Translations under genes and position numbers: made by a program
From: Shigella phage SH7
DNA length: 64,000 bases
Direction: 5' to 3' (one strand)
Sequence record: KX828711
Notes under the pieces: generated by a model
Databases searched by the model: none
Seen by the model: only the letters and a program-made list of their open reading frames with translations
What the model was told of the DNA's origin: nothing
Shown here: one piece after another, positions 10,299 through 18,216 of the stretch
Position numbering within the stretch: the stretch's first letter is position 1
How the letters are laid out: every line of letters begins with the position of its first letter

Positions 10299-10619
10299 TT
10301 ATAGCGTAATCCATTCTCGTACTGTCTGAGTTACTACACGTTCTCGAAGCTCAACCAGTTCAACAGTAGGAACTGCATAATACCAGTCAGAATGGTAAGA
10401 ACCTGAGCGAGATTCATTTACAGCCACATGAACGTTATGTTTTGGACTAAAATAAACACACTGACGATATTGACATTTACCATCTTGCACCCAGTCTTCT
10501 ATTTCGATAGGTTTAAGATAGTCGGAAAAATCGAAATCATAGTTTTCCGAAAATGCATCATGGTCTTCAATGATTTCGCTCAGAACTGCATCAACATCTA
10601 ATTTATTTTCAGTATTCAT
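10299..10619 (-). CDS. hypothetical acidic protein
   Basis: 106-aa ORF, no recognised motif. Confidence 0.5.
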   Translation of the reverse strand: MNTENKLDVDAVLSEIIEDHDAFSENYDFDFSDYLKPIEIEDWVQDGKCQYRQCVYFSPKHNVHVAVNESRSGSYHSDWYYAVPTVELVELRERVVTQTVREWITL

Positions 10620-10630
10620 TTTTTCACCAA

Positions 10631-11020
10631 TTAATTTCGCAATTTATTAAGTTCTTCATAATCAATCCAGGATTCTAATCCTGATGGCAAATCAGATTCA
10701 ATTTCCCAAAGAAGTTCTTCAATTTTATGAAGACGATCTAATTCTTCGGCTGGAATAGTAACCATTGACGGAGTTCTTGATACACTAATATCGTAAATCA
10801 TATTTACCCCCAGTTTGACCATACAATCGCCGTATTTCCACTTAGAAATAGACTTTTCACCATTAGAATAATAAACTTCGAGTTTAGCACGATTATTTTT
10901 AATTTGAATAACCTTGGCTGTCATCAAAGTTCCATACCCATAATAAACTGCAACTTCATCACCTACATATACCGCGCTTCCGCGGTAATCATGAATATAG
11001 TCAGTTCCTTCGAGCATCAT
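10631..11020 (-). CDS. hypothetical protein
   Basis: 129-aa ORF overlapping the nrdC stop by 4 nt. Confidence 0.55.
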   Translation of the reverse strand: MMLEGTDYIHDYRGSAVYVGDEVAVYYGYGTLMTAKVIQIKNNRAKLEVYYSNGEKSISKWKYGDCMVKLGVNMIYDISVSRTPSMVTIPAEELDRLHKIEELLWEIESDLPSGLESWIDYEELNKLRN

Positions 11021-11281: not shown

Positions 11282-11524
11282 TTATTCCTTAATTCCTAGT
11301 ACTTGTTTAAAAGTCTCGTCGTAATCAAGACTTTGGCCCGTTTGTTCTTTATGTTTGTATATAATATCACTTACTTCTGATAGCATATTTTTATATGAAC
11401 GAGTTAAAGCAGATTTAAGCACGCTGTATCTATCAGGAAATTTACCATGTTCATTATAATAAGCTATTGCTAATTCACGGACTGCCTTTTCAGCAGTCTC
11501 CATATATTCTTTACGCTTGGTCAT
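11282..11524 (-). CDS. hypothetical protein
   Basis: Start placed at the internal Met (MTKRKEY); the longer ORF extension overlaps the upstream gene in another frame. Confidence 0.5.
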
Positions 11525-11825
11525 TTTCTTCTCGGTCAAATCGGTGTTTACAATGACGACATTTATAACGAAGATTACTAGTCTGCCAATGGACCAATTG
11601 CACCTGTTCAGTTCCACATTCAGGGCAATTAGGAACGTTTTTAGAAGCACGTTCGCGGCGTTCAACCATGACCATTACAGAATCCCAATTAACAGGAGGG
11701 CTATAATCATCACAACCGTGAATCTTTCCACGCATTTCCAGATCGTCTTCTTCACCAGCCATAATAATTTTAATTAGACTAGAATTACTTGAAGCTGCAA
11801 TGTCTTCTAATAGACGCTTTTTCAT
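11511..11825 (-). CDS. zinc-ribbon protein
   Basis: 104 aa; CPECG..(17)..CRHCKH four-Cys ribbon. Confidence 0.55.
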
Positions 11826-12751
11826 TTCAATACCTCAATAGCATTACGTAAACCATTTGCTTTTGCATTAAGAGCTTTTAACAATTTGGTGTGTTCTGCA
11901 ATCTGGGCTTCAACTTCAACCAGTCGAGATTTGAGATATTCGCGTTCTTCGCTCAAGTTATCAACCTTTTCTACTTTAGGTTCTTTTACAACTGGCTTAT
12001 ACGTATTAGGGTCCTTCAGTTTAATTAGAATGCGTGAACTGTATAACATTGAACCATTATCTTCGGTTTCATCATACATTTCTACTACGTCCATAATTTT
12101 TAACATCATGCGAAGTTTATAAGACAACGAACGAATAGTTTTGTTGTGCTTATTAATTTCTCTAGCTGTCATGGTGCCGAGATTACGTGAGTAATAATAA
12201 GGAACCTGGATATTAATTAATACTGATGAACCACCCGGCTTGTGTGTTACTTCATCAGCAATAACCCAGTCCTTAACATGAACTGTATTTGTACGGTCAT
12301 CGCCTGCGGTAAATAGTTTACGAGCATGCTTAAAAAGCATATTCACTTGGTCATTGAATTGACAAGCGAATTTATCAGCAAATTTAGTTTCAGGAATGGT
12401 AGATAACCAATCAGCCAAATGGGTCTTTTTAACATCGTTAACAATAGTAAATTCAACCAAATCGGTTATAGATGTCGCAGATTTAATGAAGCTCGGCTTC
12501 ATAAAGTTTTCAATGTTATCACGAGCTACAGTAGAAGATAACATACGAGAACGTTTAAACCATTCAAGCAAATTGCCTAACGAATGAGAATAAGCGTTCT
12601 GTGTATCTTTACAGATATGATTTTCCTGGCCAACATATTGAAGGAAATCACGAAGAATATTATTGATTACTGCTCTGTGTCCGATCTGATAATTACGGTG
12701 TTTAGTAATAAGACTGTCAAAATAATCAATATAATGTTTACGAGTTTTCAT
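11822..12751 (-). CDS. coiled-coil-tailed protein, paralog family member 1
   Basis: 309 aa; C-terminal heptad-rich tail; shares NMLFKHARKLFTAGD-type block with the next three genes. Confidence 0.65.
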   Translation of the reverse strand: MKTRKHYIDYFDSLITKHRNYQIGHRAVINNILRDFLQYVGQENHICKDTQNAYSHSLGNLLEWFKRSRMLSSTVARDNIENFMKPSFIKSATSITDLVEFTIVNDVKKTHLADWLSTIPETKFADKFACQFNDQVNMLFKHARKLFTAGDDRTNTVHVKDWVIADEVTHKPGGSSVLINIQVPYYYSRNLGTMTAREINKHNKTIRSLSYKLRMMLKIMDVVEMYDETEDNGSMLYSSRILIKLKDPNTYKPVVKEPKVEKVDNLSEEREYLKSRLVEVEAQIAEHTKLLKALNAKANGLRNAIEVLK

Positions 12752-12784
12752 GTTCTTCTCACTTGGTTAATGATTTATACTCCG

Positions 12785-12798
12785 AGCCATCCTTGGCT
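12785..12798 (-). repeat. palindromic CCATCCTTGG-core hairpin element
   Basis: AGCCA-TCCT-TGGCT; the same 10-nt core recurs at 16236, 33592 and in variant form at 13841. Confidence 0.5.
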
Positions 12799-12803
12799 TT
12801 AAA

Positions 12804-13805
12804 TTACTTAATTAACTGTAAAGCTTGTTCCAAACGATCAAGGCGATTAACAGATTCTTCCCAAATCCTTTTAGCCTGCTCATATTCTTTCTGCGCTTTA
12901 TTAGAAATTTCTAGAACTTCTTTATAAGCTTTTTCTAGTGCAATAACTTCTGGACGAATTTCTACCGGTTCAGGTGAATCGTCAAGATTATCCATTAGTT
13001 CTTCAAGGGTAGTTTCTTCTTTAGGAGTATTCACAATTTCATCACATTTTTGCTGGTAAATTTCTTTATCAGTCGGTGAGTACGCACACTTTACTTCACG
13101 AAGACTAATTATAATTTTATATCCTTCCCAACCGCATATATTCTTAAAAGGATATGTATGAATATTTTCTACTGTTTCCATACAAAGTAATGCGGTCTCT
13201 AATTGACGAGTTATAGTGCTAGCAATTGAGAAAAATTTATTAATGTTCTTTTGGTTAGTTTCTGGTGTAAAAAATCCATAATTCACAAAAATAGCTACTT
13301 TATTTTTATCAAGTTCATATTCTTTTATGATAATCATATCAGAAGCCAAAGGATGAATTTGACGATAATCGCCATAACATAATTTAGAAGCTGATTTTAG
13401 AATTTGTTTCTTAAAAAGTCTGAAATTACTAATCCAACGACGAGTAAAAATATTCTCAGGGTCTTCTTTATTATTAAGATGATAAGAATTAACATCACCG
13501 AACCAATTATATCCTACTACATCTTTGGTTCGTTTAATTTCTTTCCCAAAATTACCAAGAATATCCCGATTAACCAAATATGAAAGAAGACGAGACTCTT
13601 TAAAGGTTTTCTTGATAACATCTTTATCTACACGGCTAGAAATTTTACGAATTTCATGAATAAATTTAGTAGAAGAAACAATACTTGCATCAACACTATT
13701 GAGCCATTGATTGATAATAGAAAGAACGATATTTTGACCAAACATCGGTATAGCTTTATCATCAATAACGCTATTGAATGATTTGATATATTCGTTACGA
13801 GTCAT
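12804..13805 (-). CDS. coiled-coil-tailed protein, paralog family member 2
   Basis: 333 aa from the Met preceded by a GAGGAG RBS; the upstream ORF extension is translated promoter sequence; motif FRLFKKQILKSASKL. Confidence 0.65.
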   Translation of the reverse strand: MTRNEYIKSFNSVIDDKAIPMFGQNIVLSIINQWLNSVDASIVSSTKFIHEIRKISSRVDKDVIKKTFKESRLLSYLVNRDILGNFGKEIKRTKDVVGYNWFGDVNSYHLNNKEDPENIFTRRWISNFRLFKKQILKSASKLCYGDYRQIHPLASDMIIIKEYELDKNKVAIFVNYGFFTPETNQKNINKFFSIASTITRQLETALLCMETVENIHTYPFKNICGWEGYKIIISLREVKCAYSPTDKEIYQQKCDEIVNTPKEETTLEELMDNLDDSPEPVEIRPEVIALEKAYKEVLEISNKAQKEYEQAKRIWEESVNRLDRLEQALQLIK

Positions 13806-13833
13806 ATTAATCTCCTCAGTAGAAAGTAAGAAC

Positions 13834-13863
13834 ATTATACCACATCCTTGTGGCAAAGTAAAC
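13834..13863 (-). promoter_or_regulatory. early-type promoter (GTTTAC..TATAAT) with a hairpin in the spacer
   Basis: Reverse complement GTTTACtttgCCACAaggaTGTGGTATAAT, then GAGGAG and the ATG. Confidence 0.6.
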
Positions 13864-14885
13864 TAGTTCAGTGCATTTAGTGCATTGTTCAGTTTAGAAC
13901 GTTGCTTTGTCAGATTTTGAACCCTTGACTGAGCTTGTTCTAACACCTTTTCAGCTTCTAGCACTTCATTAGTTGCTTTAACGAGTTCATCATCTACTGC
14001 CTTGATAGACTTCTCAATCGCATCCGCGTGCCATTTTTCAACAGGTTTAAGACTCGGATTTTCAACAGGAAGAAAATTCGCTTTATTGAATTTCCATGCA
14101 TCCTTATTACCTGAACTATACATCCAAAATTTAGGATCGTTTGATGAGTAATTGGATAAATTTAAAATATCTTGCACTTCCTGCTTTTTCTCTTGCGGGA
14201 TTTCGTCCTTTCTCAAAAAATCGTATTTAAATGAAACGATCATATCAAGTTCATATGTTGTTGTGTCTAATTTAAATCGTTCGAAATGCTGTGAAATCTT
14301 AGACTGAACTGCAGCAACAACATCCATATACTTAAATGCTTCTGTCAACTGCGATTTAAGGCATTCACAAATTGAAAGAGAATTTTTTGTATTAGGTTTA
14401 AAGCTAATTCGTGCAGTTCTATTATTTTCTTTTAATGGTCTTACTTCCATCTGAAGAGTATAACCATCAAATTTCAGATTCTTTAAGTTAATATCAGAAC
14501 CTTTTAATCGACTAGCCGTCGACAAAATTTGCTTTAATTGTTTACGGAATAGAGCAATAAATCTCCATTCAATACGATAATGATTTGGATTGAAAAATCC
14601 AGATGATAAATCGACCTTACTCTGACCAACGCCTTGAACAAATAGAGGATTTTTATAATCAATAGTTTTACAGAAATCGGTGAGCTGTTCACGAGCAGTC
14701 ATTTGCGTAATATACCCCGCTTTACTAAAATGACGTAACCATTCACTGCTATTCAGATGTTTAAAGGCGTGAATGGAACAATTAACTTTACCAAGGTCTA
14801 AATTATTTTCGCACAAAAATGTCATAGCATCACGAGTATAGCTGGCATTACGAACCATATCTTCAATTTGAGAACGAGTTTTCAT
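13863..14885 (-). CDS. coiled-coil-tailed protein, paralog family member 3
   Basis: 340 aa; motif WRFIALFRKQLKQILSTASRL shared with member 2; C-terminal coiled coil. Confidence 0.65.
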   Translation of the reverse strand: MKTRSQIEDMVRNASYTRDAMTFLCENNLDLGKVNCSIHAFKHLNSSEWLRHFSKAGYITQMTAREQLTDFCKTIDYKNPLFVQGVGQSKVDLSSGFFNPNHYRIEWRFIALFRKQLKQILSTASRLKGSDINLKNLKFDGYTLQMEVRPLKENNRTARISFKPNTKNSLSICECLKSQLTEAFKYMDVVAAVQSKISQHFERFKLDTTTYELDMIVSFKYDFLRKDEIPQEKKQEVQDILNLSNYSSNDPKFWMYSSGNKDAWKFNKANFLPVENPSLKPVEKWHADAIEKSIKAVDDELVKATNEVLEAEKVLEQAQSRVQNLTKQRSKLNNALNALN

Positions 14886-14893
14886 AGTGTTCC

Positions 14894-15799
14894 TTAAGAT
14901 TTAAGTAAATCAACAATTTTAATTAATTTTTCACGCTCAGATTTAGCTTTACTACTCAGTCCAGATAGTCTGAAAATTTCATCATCATATTGTTGAATAG
15001 AAATATTCAGCTCTTCAATTTGCTTATTAAAATAATCAATTTGCTCAGAATGTTTTTCGTTACTACGAACTGGTACAGGTTTTGTAGGCAATTTAGTTGA
15101 ACTGGATTCATCCGGGCGATAAATTAAAATACAACTTGAACCAATAGGGCATTTTGCACCAGATGAATATTCTAATGTTCCGGCTTCTTTTAAAACTTCA
15201 AAAGCTAAACAGAGATGATGCCCCATATTAACATAATCTGTAGAGCGAGCTCTGATATAATAATCATCTCCACGAGTACTAAATTTAAAGCATTTAAGGT
15301 CTTCTGTATTATTGGTCTTAAAAATCATTTGTTTATCTAGACCTTTAGCTAATCGAGCGCCTAATGCTAATAATCGTCGTTGATTTTCCCACAAATCTGC
15401 GATCATTTGGTCAAATGATAATTTCGGCATTAGTCGGCCATAAAGGTCATATCCTTTATTATAATTACGAAGAATTTCACTCGCGTTAATACGAGACAAT
15501 GCTCCAATTTTATTAAGGGCTTTCATAATGCGATTAGATAAACTCATTCCAGACCCGTTTGTTCGCTGTAAATGTTTTTCTAATCCAAATCCAATATCAA
15601 CTTTAAATTTATCTAAAATTTCTGCATGAACATCTCTGTCAATAACATTCAAATCCAAAGTTGAGTTAAATCTATGAAAAAATTTATCTGGCTCTCCACG
15701 ACGAAATACAGTCCATTCATTCATCATTTTTTTATTAACTAAAGATTTAATTACTGCATTGACATTATTAATTACTACTGACATATTTTCCTCACTCAA
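14894..15799 (-). CDS. coiled-coil-tailed protein, paralog family member 4
   Basis: 301 aa; C-terminal coiled coil; weaker similarity to members 1-3. Confidence 0.6.
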   Translation of the reverse strand: MSEENMSVVINNVNAVIKSLVNKKMMNEWTVFRRGEPDKFFHRFNSTLDLNVIDRDVHAEILDKFKVDIGFGLEKHLQRTNGSGMSLSNRIMKALNKIGALSRINASEILRNYNKGYDLYGRLMPKLSFDQMIADLWENQRRLLALGARLAKGLDKQMIFKTNNTEDLKCFKFSTRGDDYYIRARSTDYVNMGHHLCLAFEVLKEAGTLEYSSGAKCPIGSSCILIYRPDESSSTKLPTKPVPVRSNEKHSEQIDYFNKQIEELNISIQQYDDEIFRLSGLSSKAKSEREKLIKIVDLLKS

Positions 15800-16200
15800 T
15801 TTTCAATTTTACTAAATACGCAGAATATGATGGAAAAGACTATATAAGCACCGCACACAGATTGAACTAATACCATTCCAAAGAACCAAACAATATTATC
15901 AAACAATGTCTGTTTTACGTCGAAAGGACGTAAACTTACAGTAATATTATCACCTTTTTCTATTGAAGAATACATCTCTGGGGAAATATATTCACTAAAT
16001 CTATAACCGTCTTTTAGTTCATATACGGCAATAAACGATAAACTAGACCCTTTTCCTTGTGTTCCCGTAATGGTATTAACTACAGTAACATCATAATCTT
16101 TATAATGCATATAATCATTAATTGCGTAATAACCATATGCAACTACTGCACATAAACAACATATCAATAAATTCAATCTTTTAATTACCAACTGTTTCAT
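15796..16200 (-). CDS. membrane protein (N- and C-terminal hydrophobic segments)
   Basis: 134 aa; hydrophobic N-terminus LLICCLCAVVAYGYYAI and C-terminal TM. Confidence 0.6.
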   Translation of the reverse strand: MKQLVIKRLNLLICCLCAVVAYGYYAINDYMHYKDYDVTVVNTITGTQGKGSSLSFIAVYELKDGYRFSEYISPEMYSSIEKGDNITVSLRPFDVKQTLFDNIVWFFGMVLVQSVCGAYIVFSIIFCVFSKIEN

Positions 16201-16255
16201 AATAATCTCAATTAAAAGGGCTTAGAACCATTATACCATCCTTGGTATAAAGCGG

Positions 16256-16783
16256 TTATGCGAGTACCGTCTTTAACCGTTCTTCAAACTTCCGAAGAGT
16301 ATTCTGGCGTTCAGCTCTTTGCTTTTTGTAAGTTTCAATACGCTCTGAAATGAGAGTGTATCGTTCATTTACTGATTCTTTCATAAAATCAGGAATTTCA
16401 CGAGAAGCTTTAATCTCATCAAATTTATCAATAACAGCTTGCTCTTCAGCAATTAAGTTATCATACATCAAAATATCTTTCTTGATGAACTCAATATCTT
16501 CTTGAGTTACACGAGATAATTTAGATGCTTTATCCTTTTTGTACTGTTCGTTAGTATCACGAGACCAGTGTAATGTACGATTTTTATTCGTATTCTTATA
16601 AATTTCTACAATACCAATCTCATCAATAATAACGATCCAATTCCAACGGGATTTGTAAATTTGTCCTCCATCAACAGTGATTTCACCTCCGATTGAGATG
16701 TCATTAAAGAACTTGCTTTGTGCTTCAGATTTAAATTTACCATCGTTGTAATTTACCAGGTTGAAAATATCTTTAGCGTTCAT
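16256..16783 (-). CDS. hypothetical coiled-coil protein
   Basis: 175 aa from MNAKDIF; GGAGG RBS; the ORF N-terminal extension (GTIQLSTT) is translated promoter sequence. Confidence 0.6.
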   Translation of the reverse strand: MNAKDIFNLVNYNDGKFKSEAQSKFFNDISIGGEITVDGGQIYKSRWNWIVIIDEIGIVEIYKNTNKNRTLHWSRDTNEQYKKDKASKLSRVTQEDIEFIKKDILMYDNLIAEEQAVIDKFDEIKASREIPDFMKESVNERYTLISERIETYKKQRAERQNTLRKFEERLKTVLA

Positions 16784-16841: not shown

Positions 16842-16843
16842 AA

Positions 16844-17247: not shown

Positions 17248-18216
17248 TTATTTCAGAAGAGTAACCTCAGCAATTTCTTCCCAACCGTTTTTGTCGGTCA
17301 TAATAAAGTCAGCAAGATAAAGTGCAGTACGCAGTGAAACATTGCGTAAACGATTAACATTAACTTTCATCCATGATAATGCTTTATAAGTTTCTTCATC
17401 AGAAAGACCACGTTTTTGCATCATGTCAGTTGAAAGAATAACATCTTCAACCCTGACCATAATTTCTTCATTAGTGTGAACACCCAAATCTAAATAAACT
17501 GAGCGGGACACTAATGCTTGTAAATGTGGAGCAAGTTTAGTACCACGGTCTAATTCGCGGTCAATGTCAACGTTTGTGATAAAAACAATCGTTCCTTTAA
17601 ATTCAAACTCACGCTCAATGCCTTTTTCTTCTAAGTAAGAAGATGCGGTGCTCCAGCAGACTTTACGGGTCTCTCCAGTGTCCAGAGCAGCTTTCAGAAG
17701 ATTAAGAATGTCCATATCAGAGAAAACATCCACATCATCAATCAAAAGGACAGAATTCTCTTCACGATTATTCCAAAGCTGTTCATAAAGACCGATACCA
17801 GAGATTTTACCATTAATGCTTTTATACTCAATGTATCCAATATCATTTGCTTTATTTAAAGCTTTATCTAAAGAATACGTTTTACCAATACCTGCTGCTC
17901 CCGAGATAATTAATGAACGAATGTTTCCGTTAATAATACCATTCGTCATCATTCCCATAACATTAAATCTTTTATTAATGCGGGTTTTCATATCTTCATA
18001 CGATTCTTTAACTTCTTCAACTTTTACACCATCATATGAAATGTCTGATTTGTAAACCCAAACACCGCGACGTTTACCGTCAATTTCAACAAAAACTTTA
18101 CCATCTCCTTGTGCATCTACCGGAGCATTATCTGGGAACCATTCGCCTAAGAGCTCAAAAGTTCCAGAGATTTCTTTACCGAAGTAGATACCCTTATTGA
18201 TAGTTACAGTTTTCAT
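17248..18216 (-). CDS. P-loop (AAA+-like) ATPase
   Basis: 322 aa; Walker A GAAGIGKT, Walker B VLLIDDVD, sensor-like IVFITN. Confidence 0.7.
   Translation of the reverse strand: MKTVTINKGIYFGKEISGTFELLGEWFPDNAPVDAQGDGKVFVEIDGKRRGVWVYKSDISYDGVKVEEVKESYEDMKTRINKRFNVMGMMTNGIINGNIRSLIISGAAGIGKTYSLDKALNKANDIGYIEYKSINGKISGIGLYEQLWNNREENSVLLIDDVDVFSDMDILNLLKAALDTGETRKVCWSTASSYLEEKGIEREFEFKGTIVFITNVDIDRELDRGTKLAPHLQALVSRSVYLDLGVHTNEEIMVRVEDVILSTDMMQKRGLSDEETYKALSWMKVNVNRLRNVSLRTALYLADFIMTDKNGWEEIAEVTLLK

Follow-up and report, generated by a model that had tools for sequence, protein, structure and literature searches.

An old tandem family of head-linker-helix proteins, NrdC.3 to NrdC.6, in Shigella phage SH7 and its probable part in counter-defence

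Introduction

The genome of Shigella phage SH7 (sequence record KX828711), of which a stretch of 64,000 nucleotides was analysed as a whole and will be denoted as the window, carries four consecutive, co-oriented genes on its minus strand that raise the question of whether their products are related and what they do for the phage. These are the orthologs of T4 nrdC.3 (11822-12751, 309 amino acids (aa)), nrdC.4 (12804-13805, 333 aa), nrdC.5 (13863-14885, 340 aa) and nrdC.6 (14894-15784, 296 aa), and a sequence-only reading had taken them for diverged paralogs with C-terminal coiled-coil tails and a function in host takeover or anti-defence. T4 is the reference phage, yet to our knowledge no function has been assigned to the majority of its accessory genes.

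In the interpretation favoured here, to which a probability of about 0.6 is assigned, the four genes form a tandem family of old standing and encode accessory proteins that are prereplicative and non-essential; the heads would bind and block different host proteins, and the coiled-coil tails would confer multivalency. The underlying observation is real and well beyond chance; its interpretation is right in outline and partly supported, the role being proven for one gene, nrdC.5 of T4. The genes themselves are long-annotated T4 open reading frames (ORFs) and the role of nrdC.5 has been published. Uniting nrdC.3 to nrdC.6 and their Straboviridae counterparts in one head-linker-coiled-coil superfamily, as well as naming nrdC.3, nrdC.4 and nrdC.6 as counter-defence candidates, appear to be unreported in the literature searched. 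The result is useful and directly testable, and no surprise to the specialist.

Homology of the four proteins

The simplest objection to a common origin is that the four proteins are unrelated and that their likeness stems from coiled-coil composition and chance short matches. Pairwise BLASTP leaves some room for it, as only NrdC.3 and NrdC.4 are significantly similar (24% identity over 270 aa, E 6e-8), the other five pairs being not significant with E values of at least 0.29 (four of the six pairs are counted as non-significant in the tally drawn up for this alternative). Family alignments were compared by hhalign with the tails removed to exclude coiled-coil composition, and with 100 column-shuffled controls. 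The heads of NrdC.3 and NrdC.4 match with a z of 28, those of NrdC.4 and NrdC.5 with a score of 35.7 (z 9.1) and those of NrdC.5 and NrdC.6 with a score of 29.8 (z 6.3), and in none of these three comparisons did any of the 100 shuffles attain the real score, which speaks against unrelatedness; the NrdC.3-NrdC.5 comparison is marginal and the NrdC.3-NrdC.6 and NrdC.4-NrdC.6 comparisons are not significant, as unrelated proteins would have it. Within the window, the best non-self matches of the family hidden Markov models are other members of the four. HMMER alone does not connect the families, since the NrdC.5 profile, searched against 1.84 billion representative proteins, gave 13 matches which are all NrdC.5-like or confined to the tail and include no NrdC.3, NrdC.4 or NrdC.6. 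A 310-aa protein of Escherichia phage ST2 represents an intermediate, being related to NrdC.5 with an E value of 5e-10, again at odds with unrelatedness; its N-terminus resembles that of NrdC.4, although not significantly (58% over 12 aa, E 0.60).

The gap in the sequence evidence between NrdC.4 and NrdC.6 is closed by predicted structure. The AlphaFold2 models of these two proteins (mean predicted local distance difference test (pLDDT) 81.7 and 77.3, respectively) display an identical order of elements. Both begin with a two-helix motif and strands, followed by a helix pair and a hairpin; a long helix then leads to a second hairpin, the linker and the tail. In Foldseek searches the NrdC.4 model retrieves NrdC.6 of phage JS10 (E 2e-5, probability 1.0) and the NrdC.6 model a 308-aa protein of Yersinia phage fPS-65 (E 1.4e-3), which we infer to be an NrdC.3 ortholog. 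Furthermore, both models match the same uncharacterised 300-370-aa proteins from T4-like phages of Enterobacter, Pectobacterium, Acinetobacter, Erwinia, Serratia and Yersinia at about 1e-7, these shared matches having a probability of 1.0. The four proteins are thus homologous, remotely, through a transitive chain of BLASTP, head-only profiles and predicted structure, which bears out their description as diverged paralogs, and the idea that they are unrelated, by now very improbable, is largely refuted. Of the checks proposed along with that description, pairwise alignment gave significant results for NrdC.3-NrdC.4 by BLASTP and for NrdC.4-NrdC.5 and NrdC.5-NrdC.6 by head profiles, and structure prediction agreed for NrdC.4 and NrdC.6, the two proteins modelled.

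Four motifs run collinearly through all four sequences. The first, F-x-K-x-G-x-L-S-x3-A-x-E-x-L-x-N-F-x-K, includes MTARE in NrdC.5 and TVARD (residues 74-78) in NrdC.3. The second is a Lys/Arg-rich basic helix (NMLFKHARKLFTAGD, FRLFKKQILKSASKL, FRKQLKQILSTASRLKG, LWENQRRLLALGARLAKG), the third reads L-x2-A-[FL]-x2-M-[DE]-x-V and the fourth is the terminal motif of the tail. The sequence-only reading had listed shared internal blocks, of which NMLFKHARKLFTAGD, FRLFKKQILKSASKL and FRKQLKQILSTASRL align with each other and with LWENQRRLLALGARLAKG of NrdC.6, so that the basic-helix blocks hold for all four proteins. This is not the case for the MTARE block of nrdC.3 (residues 199-203), which is not collinear with MTARE of NrdC.5 and was rejected as a chance match, of the kind that unrelated proteins would show as well.

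Head, linker and C-terminal helix

In the common plan a basic head (about 225-270 residues) is joined through a disordered linker of 13-22 residues to an amphipathic helix of seven heptads that extends to the C-terminus. The head combines an N-terminal helical region with an alpha/beta core in which two helices are followed by a hairpin, a further helix and another hairpin. Heads are basic, with pI values of 9.2-9.5 and net charges of +7 to +11, and tails are neutral to acidic. The linkers of NrdC.3, NrdC.5 and NrdC.6 are rich in Pro and Lys, as had been claimed for all four; that of NrdC.4 is instead an acidic Pro/Glu segment.

In a heptad scan, values above the 95th percentile of shuffled sequences occur only at the C-terminus of each protein, apart from one window near residue 27 of NrdC.4, and no heptad window exceeds the threshold in the neighbours nrdC.2, nrdC.7 and nrdC.9. 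All four proteins end in one unbroken a/d register of 49-56 residues (about seven heptads) that reaches the last or second-to-last residue, and the register relative to the C-terminus is identical in all of them, with a similar terminal motif L-x-x-A-[LI]-x-x-L-[KN]. The helix of NrdC.3 is encoded by 11825-11965 (about aa 263-309) and that of NrdC.4 by 12807-12953 (aa 285-333, 285-332 in the AlphaFold2 model), ending in RLEQALQLIK. The NrdC.5 helix (13866-14036, about aa 284-340, ending in KLNNALNALN) gives the strongest heptad signal of the window, and the NrdC.6 helix (14897-15061, aa 242-296, ending in KLIKIVDLLKS) is divided into residues 243-272 and 278-295 by AlphaFold2; all four segments lie on the minus strand. 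When the 68 ORFs of the window that reach 100 aa or more are sorted by C-terminal heptad score, NrdC.5 comes first, NrdC.4 second, NrdC.3 third, NrdC.8 fourth and NrdC.6 fifth, the probability that four given ORFs all fall within the top five being 5/814385. With heptads that continue over more than four repeats and hydrophobic a/d positions, the tails qualify as coiled coils at the level of sequence. In the AlphaFold2 monomers of NrdC.4 and NrdC.6 the tail helix projects alone from the body behind the disordered linker, with pLDDT values of 69-91. The C-terminal heptad-rich helices that the sequence-only reading had proposed are hence confirmed by register, shuffle test and the two models.

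Among distant orthologs the tails are better conserved than the heads within each family (NrdC.4 0.60 versus 0.45, NrdC.6 0.66 versus 0.38, NrdC.5 0.37 versus 0.23 and NrdC.3 0.74 versus 0.59), which argues for a tail role that depends on its particular sequence.

Counter-defence by NrdC.5 and the surrounding island

A function has been reported for the T4 ortholog of one of the four genes by Srikant, Guegler and Laub (eLife 2022, PMC9391042). An evolved T4 deletion clone lost the ability to plate on ECOR17, and deletion of dsr1 in ECOR17 restored plating; plasmid-borne dsr1 in turn protected MG1655 against the deletion clone, and T4 nrdC.5 on a plasmid was by itself enough to rescue the deletion mutant on E. 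coli with the Dsr1 of ECOR17 (PMC9391042). SH7 NrdC.5 is 93% identical to this reported Dsr1 counter-defence protein, occupies the same position and is its ortholog. The other three SH7 proteins share its architecture as remote homologs but fall in other Pfam and PHROG families. No description of the mechanism of NrdC.5 was found in the literature searched.

Three further genes in the vicinity are connected with anti-defence. T6 Gp49.2 inhibits OLD (PMC13096335), and the window encodes a gp49.2 at 10299-10619 that is 99% identical to 49.2 of T4, the reported OLD inhibitor being the T6 protein. T4 nrdC.1 inhibits Septu and Bas37_0203 inhibits Druantia III (bioRxiv 2025.11.20.689424, 2025 preprint); NrdC.1 of the window (11282-11524) is 100% identical to T4's reported Septu inhibitor. 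As seen from the Bas37 record MZ501089, bas37_0203, not named as nrdC.8 in the preprint (bioRxiv 2025.11.20.689424), is the nrdC.8 ortholog and 99.4% identical to window positions 16256-16783. The latter encode a protein of 175 aa that likewise ends in a heptad tail, fourth in score among the 68 ORFs. In the ORF list nrdC.8 extends to a TTG at 16843 (195 aa); the annotated start yields 175 aa. Like nrdC.3 to nrdC.6, these three genes of the T4 49-to-nrdC.11 region lie on the minus strand in the same prereplicative block, with window orthologs 99-100% identical, and NrdC.8 has a heptad helix. Unlike the four, gp49.2, NrdC.1 and NrdC.8 are small (80-175 aa), and none of them, NrdC.8 included, has a detectable sequence relation to the four proteins. 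Since 49.2, nrdC.1 and nrdC.8 act against OLD, Septu and Druantia III, the nrdC.3-nrdC.6 block sits inside an anti-defence island. Being relatives of the anti-Dsr1 gene nrdC.5 in a block with four anti-defence genes, nrdC.3, nrdC.4 and nrdC.6 are counter-defence candidates. Of the host-takeover or anti-defence role claimed for the whole family, the part that stands is the anti-Dsr1 activity of the nrdC.5 ortholog in T4 (PMC9391042) together with the island context, shown for that one member.

It is conceivable, but unlikely, that only NrdC.5 was recruited to defence and that NrdC.3, NrdC.4 and NrdC.6 are host-takeover or physiology factors binding host nucleic acid or housekeeping proteins. 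The basic heads, with their pI of 9.2-9.5, charge of +7 to +11 and Lys/Arg-rich motif-2 helix, would suit such a function, and NrdC.6, with 740 records and a dN/dS (the ratio of non-synonymous to synonymous divergence) of 0.04-0.13, is retained more widely and conserved better than the other members. Moreover, nrdC.1 was reported from a transposon screen of T4 that covered several defence systems, the four genes under study being absent from its main text; set against this, just a handful of defence systems has been screened to date. The genes are also dispensable in nature, as phages ACG-C40, Pinarejo, LYE-01 and Manna are without one to three of them, and the island harbors four genes of known anti-defence phenotype.

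Proposed mode of action

In the favoured interpretation each head would bind a different host protein and block it as a stoichiometric binder; Dsr1, a SIR2-type NADase defence, would be the target of the NrdC.5 head. By forming a coiled coil, the tail would render the inhibitor di- or multivalent, with a higher avidity for oligomeric targets. An anti-defence role of NrdC.3, NrdC.4 and NrdC.6 is what we infer from this scheme. Enzyme signatures were not encountered, as there is no meaningful sequence match in Pfam (beyond domains of unknown function (DUFs)), NCBIfam, PADLOC or the Protein Data Bank (PDB), and no CxxC motif in the four proteins; the PADLOC, NCBIfam and PDB searches returned only designed helical repeats and coiled-coil segments of BrxC and PgrA. 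The N-terminal SAM-like domain of tyrosine recombinases was considered and rejected, being matched weakly by SH7 NrdC.3 only (Pfam E 0.072, NCBIfam E 0.0015); among 26 aligned members, one gives a match.

A possible working analogy is provided by DSAD1, which mimics the tail tube protein and blocks DSR2 by filling the sensor pocket that this protein would otherwise take (PMC10973363). DSAD1 and NrdC.5 are alike in that both come from phages and neutralise an NADase defence with a SIR2 domain; in contrast to NrdC.5, DSAD1 belongs to the SPbeta-like phage group and is directed against DSR2, and no relation in sequence or fold was found, so that the likeness is functional only. By extension of this analogy, the heads might be expressed early and imitate a virion protein whose alpha/beta domain resembles that of a tail terminator, filling the pockets of defence sensors without activating them, a variant that we consider distinctly unlikely. 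As such decoys, the Straboviridae-wide family would represent a reusable scaffold, multivalent via the fixed seven-heptad coiled coil, with each paralog tuned to another defence sensor. The resemblance to tail terminators (lambda gpU-like or DUF3168-like alpha/beta domains) may reflect a common two-layer sandwich, since RNA polymerase subunits and nitroreductases appear in the same score range. Contrary to tail terminators, the four genes are early and non-structural and their products carry additional N-terminal and coiled-coil modules; membership in the gpU-like family, which would call for a convincing fold score together with late expression and a location in the tail gene module, was rejected.

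The tails might also serve to bundle NrdC.3, NrdC.4, NrdC.5 and NrdC.6, perhaps with NrdC.8, into a single multi-headed hetero-complex that acts as a unit, in place of homo-oligomers. Such an assembly would be in line with the equal length, heptad register and terminal motif of the tails, with the conserved tail sequence that each paralog has of its own and with the adjacent, co-oriented genes. It is nevertheless quite improbable, as NrdC.5 alone from a plasmid rescues the deletion phage on Dsr1 cells (the paralogs kept by that phage are not stated), as natural phages hold one, two or three members in varied combinations and as a crude count of e/g charge pairs displays no hetero-pair preference, this count being uninformative as a predictor of homo- versus hetero-pairing.

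Several points weigh against heads that bind separate targets on multivalent tails. NrdC.5 could mask the trigger or act indirectly instead of binding Dsr1, and no functional account or target of nrdC.3, nrdC.4 or nrdC.6 was found in the literature searched. The a/d positions of the NrdC.4 tail include Y, S, A and W and are poor for a canonical coiled coil. The hhalign probability of NrdC.4-NrdC.5 amounts to 40-48% only, and the cross-family Foldseek template-modelling (TM) scores are low (0.37-0.48) with high root-mean-square deviations, which is attributed to the putatively movable orientation of the flexible tail and the N-domain. With models of NrdC.4 and NrdC.6 at hand, the fold of NrdC.5 and NrdC.3 is placed provisionally, from sequence profiles and a weak Foldseek match. 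Finally, gene-wide dN/dS values stay below 0.3 and thus carry no arms-race signature.

Since head, linker and tail are separable, the modules can be examined one by one, and phages of Escherichia, Yersinia, Acinetobacter, Erwinia and Serratia hosts offer a family to mine.

Distribution and evolution of the array

The number of phage records with a tblastn match is 652 for NrdC.3, 552 for NrdC.4, 602 for NrdC.5 and 740 for NrdC.6. The family is found at the same locus across the Straboviridae, including Acinetobacter phage Acj61, in natural arrays of one to four genes. ACG-C40 has kept only nrdC.6 plus remnants, Pinarejo lacks nrdC.6 save for the last 47 codons, LYE-01 is without nrdC.4, and ST2 possesses three members, among them an NrdC.5-like protein just 23% identical to that of SH7. 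In Salmonella phage Manna (L005 3715-4752) nrdC.5 is deleted and an in-frame NrdC.6::NrdC.4 fusion joins the NrdC.6 head to the linker and tail of NrdC.4. The junction is a microhomology of 21 nucleotides (nt; QQYDDEI/QQKCDEI) which is present in the SH7 window at 14975-14995 and 13035-13055. An in-frame NrdC.5::NrdC.3 fusion is found in a metagenomic protein (P0161) on a 167-kb contig. The proposed comparison of copy number across T4-like genomes therefore yielded arrays of one to four genes with natural deletions and in-frame fusions, and these head/tail fusions and copy-number variants constitute ready tests of modularity.

A 173-aa protein (P0230) that might have been regarded as a foreign head on an NrdC.5 tail was discarded; it stems from an 803-nt contig, its head is absent from phage records and its partial matches are ordinary NrdC.5, so that it may be a chimeric assembly and is not used as evidence. 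Within the 378-aa NrdC.6 of Shigella phage Sf25 (P0001), about 82 residues that cover the latter half of the head and the beginning of the tail are duplicated in tandem, a feature that may be real or an assembly artefact. The ST2 record (OM982647.1) bears the taxonomy line Guernseyvirinae; Kagunavirus, yet the genome has 171 kb and the T4-type nrdD-49-nrdC order, and its taxonomy appears to be wrong.

The serial duplication assumed in the sequence-only reading is not recovered. DNA repeats within 11500-16300 are limited to microhomologies of 19-23 nt and paralog identity does not exceed 24%, by which a recent duplication is ruled out. In Acj61 (Twarogvirinae), p120 (330 aa) and p121 (304 aa), corresponding to the Foldseek matches E5E4A1 and E5E4A2, lie adjacent between nrdC and nrdC.10 and follow the head-linker-heptad-helix plan; as two members are already neighbours at the same locus in an Acinetobacter phage, the duplication is ancient. 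Acj61p120 and Acj61p121 resemble the window proteins in locus, tandem arrangement, architecture and terminal motif (TLNKALEIMML and ILAKALVV), and differ from them in that they are uncharacterised and that their sequence similarity lies below the detection of single-sequence hhalign. More generally, 300-370-aa Straboviridae proteins encoded at the nrdC-to-nrdC.10 locus match the two models with Foldseek E values of 2e-7 to 1e-4.

SH7 and T4 nrdC.3 (L001 3423-4349) share 60% aa identity with a synonymous divergence (dS) of 1.05, compared with about 0.1 in the flanking genes. This difference suggests that recombination brought in an old allele, and not that evolution was locally fast. Across phages, nrdC.3 falls by tblastn into three allele classes of about 97%, 75-78% and 60% identity. 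Gene-wide dN/dS ranges from 0.04 to 0.29 over the four genes and from 0.04 to 0.13 in NrdC.6, which indicates purifying selection, somewhat relaxed in comparison to core neighbours; positive selection is not evident from these values. The family is accordingly diversifying, as had been suggested, by allele replacement, loss and fusion, but not in its dN/dS of 0.04-0.29.

Locus, gene calls and transcription

The phage from which the window comes is T4-like and belongs to the genus Tequatrovirus. Window positions 11400-16300 have matches in 740 phage records, T4T covering 89% of this stretch at 94.5% identity, and the T4T annotation corresponds one-to-one to the four genes, in the same order and on the same strand, between nrdC.2 and nrdC.7. 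All four genes are co-oriented with the 49-nrdC block on the minus strand. Identity to the T4 proteins amounts to 97% for NrdC.4, 93% for NrdC.5 and 99% for NrdC.6, and to only 60% for NrdC.3. NrdC.3 and NrdC.4 match the profile of PHROG 1435 over their full length (E 1.7e-116 and 1.4e-168), with homologs of NrdC.4 carrying the precomputed Pfam assignment PF26897. NrdC.5 (PHROG 2351) matches Pfam DUF7235 (PF23882) over its full length with 406 bits at a gathering cut-off of 30; NrdC.3, NrdC.4 and NrdC.6 gave no DUF7235 match in the Pfam search and stand outside that family. NrdC.6 matches PHROG 2257 with E 6.1e-152 over residues 6-301 (in 301-aa numbering), and all of its homologs carry the precomputed assignment PF26899.

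The four genes are consecutive, as had been stated, and the first three lengths of 309, 333 and 340 aa are retained; the fourth protein measures 296 aa and not 301 aa. The longer nrdC.6 form (ORF 14894-15799) begins at a TTG at 15799, whereas the ATG at 15784 is preceded by GAGG and gives the 296 aa found in the T4 annotation and nearly all homologs, which makes this ATG the most likely start. The correct form of nrdC.4 is the one of 333 aa from the ATG at 13805, since GAGGAG precedes this codon, which lies downstream of the promoter, and since the in-frame ATG upstream of it falls inside the promoter -10 element.

This promoter, a consensus match to the T4 early type (GTTTACT-17-TGgTATAAT) at 13862-13834 on the minus strand, lies in the gap between nrdC.5 and nrdC.4, where an early-type promoter for at least one of the four genes had been proposed (13834-13863); the site precedes nrdC.4. 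With 10 of 12 consensus positions it is the best minus-strand site of the region and ties with two plus-strand sites. Its spacer contains a hairpin of seven pairs, TGCCACAAGGATGTGGTA, with the perfect core CCACA/TGTGG (13838-13855, minus strand). An early-like match, TGGACT-17-TAGAAT, at 17198-17170 (minus strand) upstream of nrdC.9 is a possible start of a transcript spanning nrdC.9 to nrdC.5. Judged from a sigma-70-type early promoter match upstream and the orientation of the early unit, the four genes would classify as early. No intergenic match to a MotA box or to the late promoter (TATAAATA) was found, the sole relaxed MotA-box match being located inside nrdC.3. T4 nrdC.5 has been termed an early gene (PMC9391042).

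In many phage records the orthologs of nrdC.2 to nrdC.11, the four genes included, are labelled 'thioredoxin', without possessing thioredoxin features. The names of the nrdC.N type merely mark the map position beside nrdC. A thioredoxin-like function or one in nucleotide metabolism, for which nothing but these GenBank labels speaks, deserves hardly any credence, as there is no thioredoxin Pfam match, no CxxC in any of the four proteins and a predicted fold of helical region, alpha/beta core and long helix. On these grounds the label is evidently an error of name propagation, and this widespread mis-annotation is flagged here.

Elsewhere in the region, the nrdC.10 ortholog (17248-18216, minus strand) gives weak matches to P-loop, AAA and STAND NTPases (AAA_14 E 6e-5, nSTAND3 E 5e-4), all under the gathering scores. 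An unrelated 129-aa ORF at 10631-11020 (minus strand) takes the position of T4 gene 49.3 and resembles a cassette replacement between 49.2 and nrdC.

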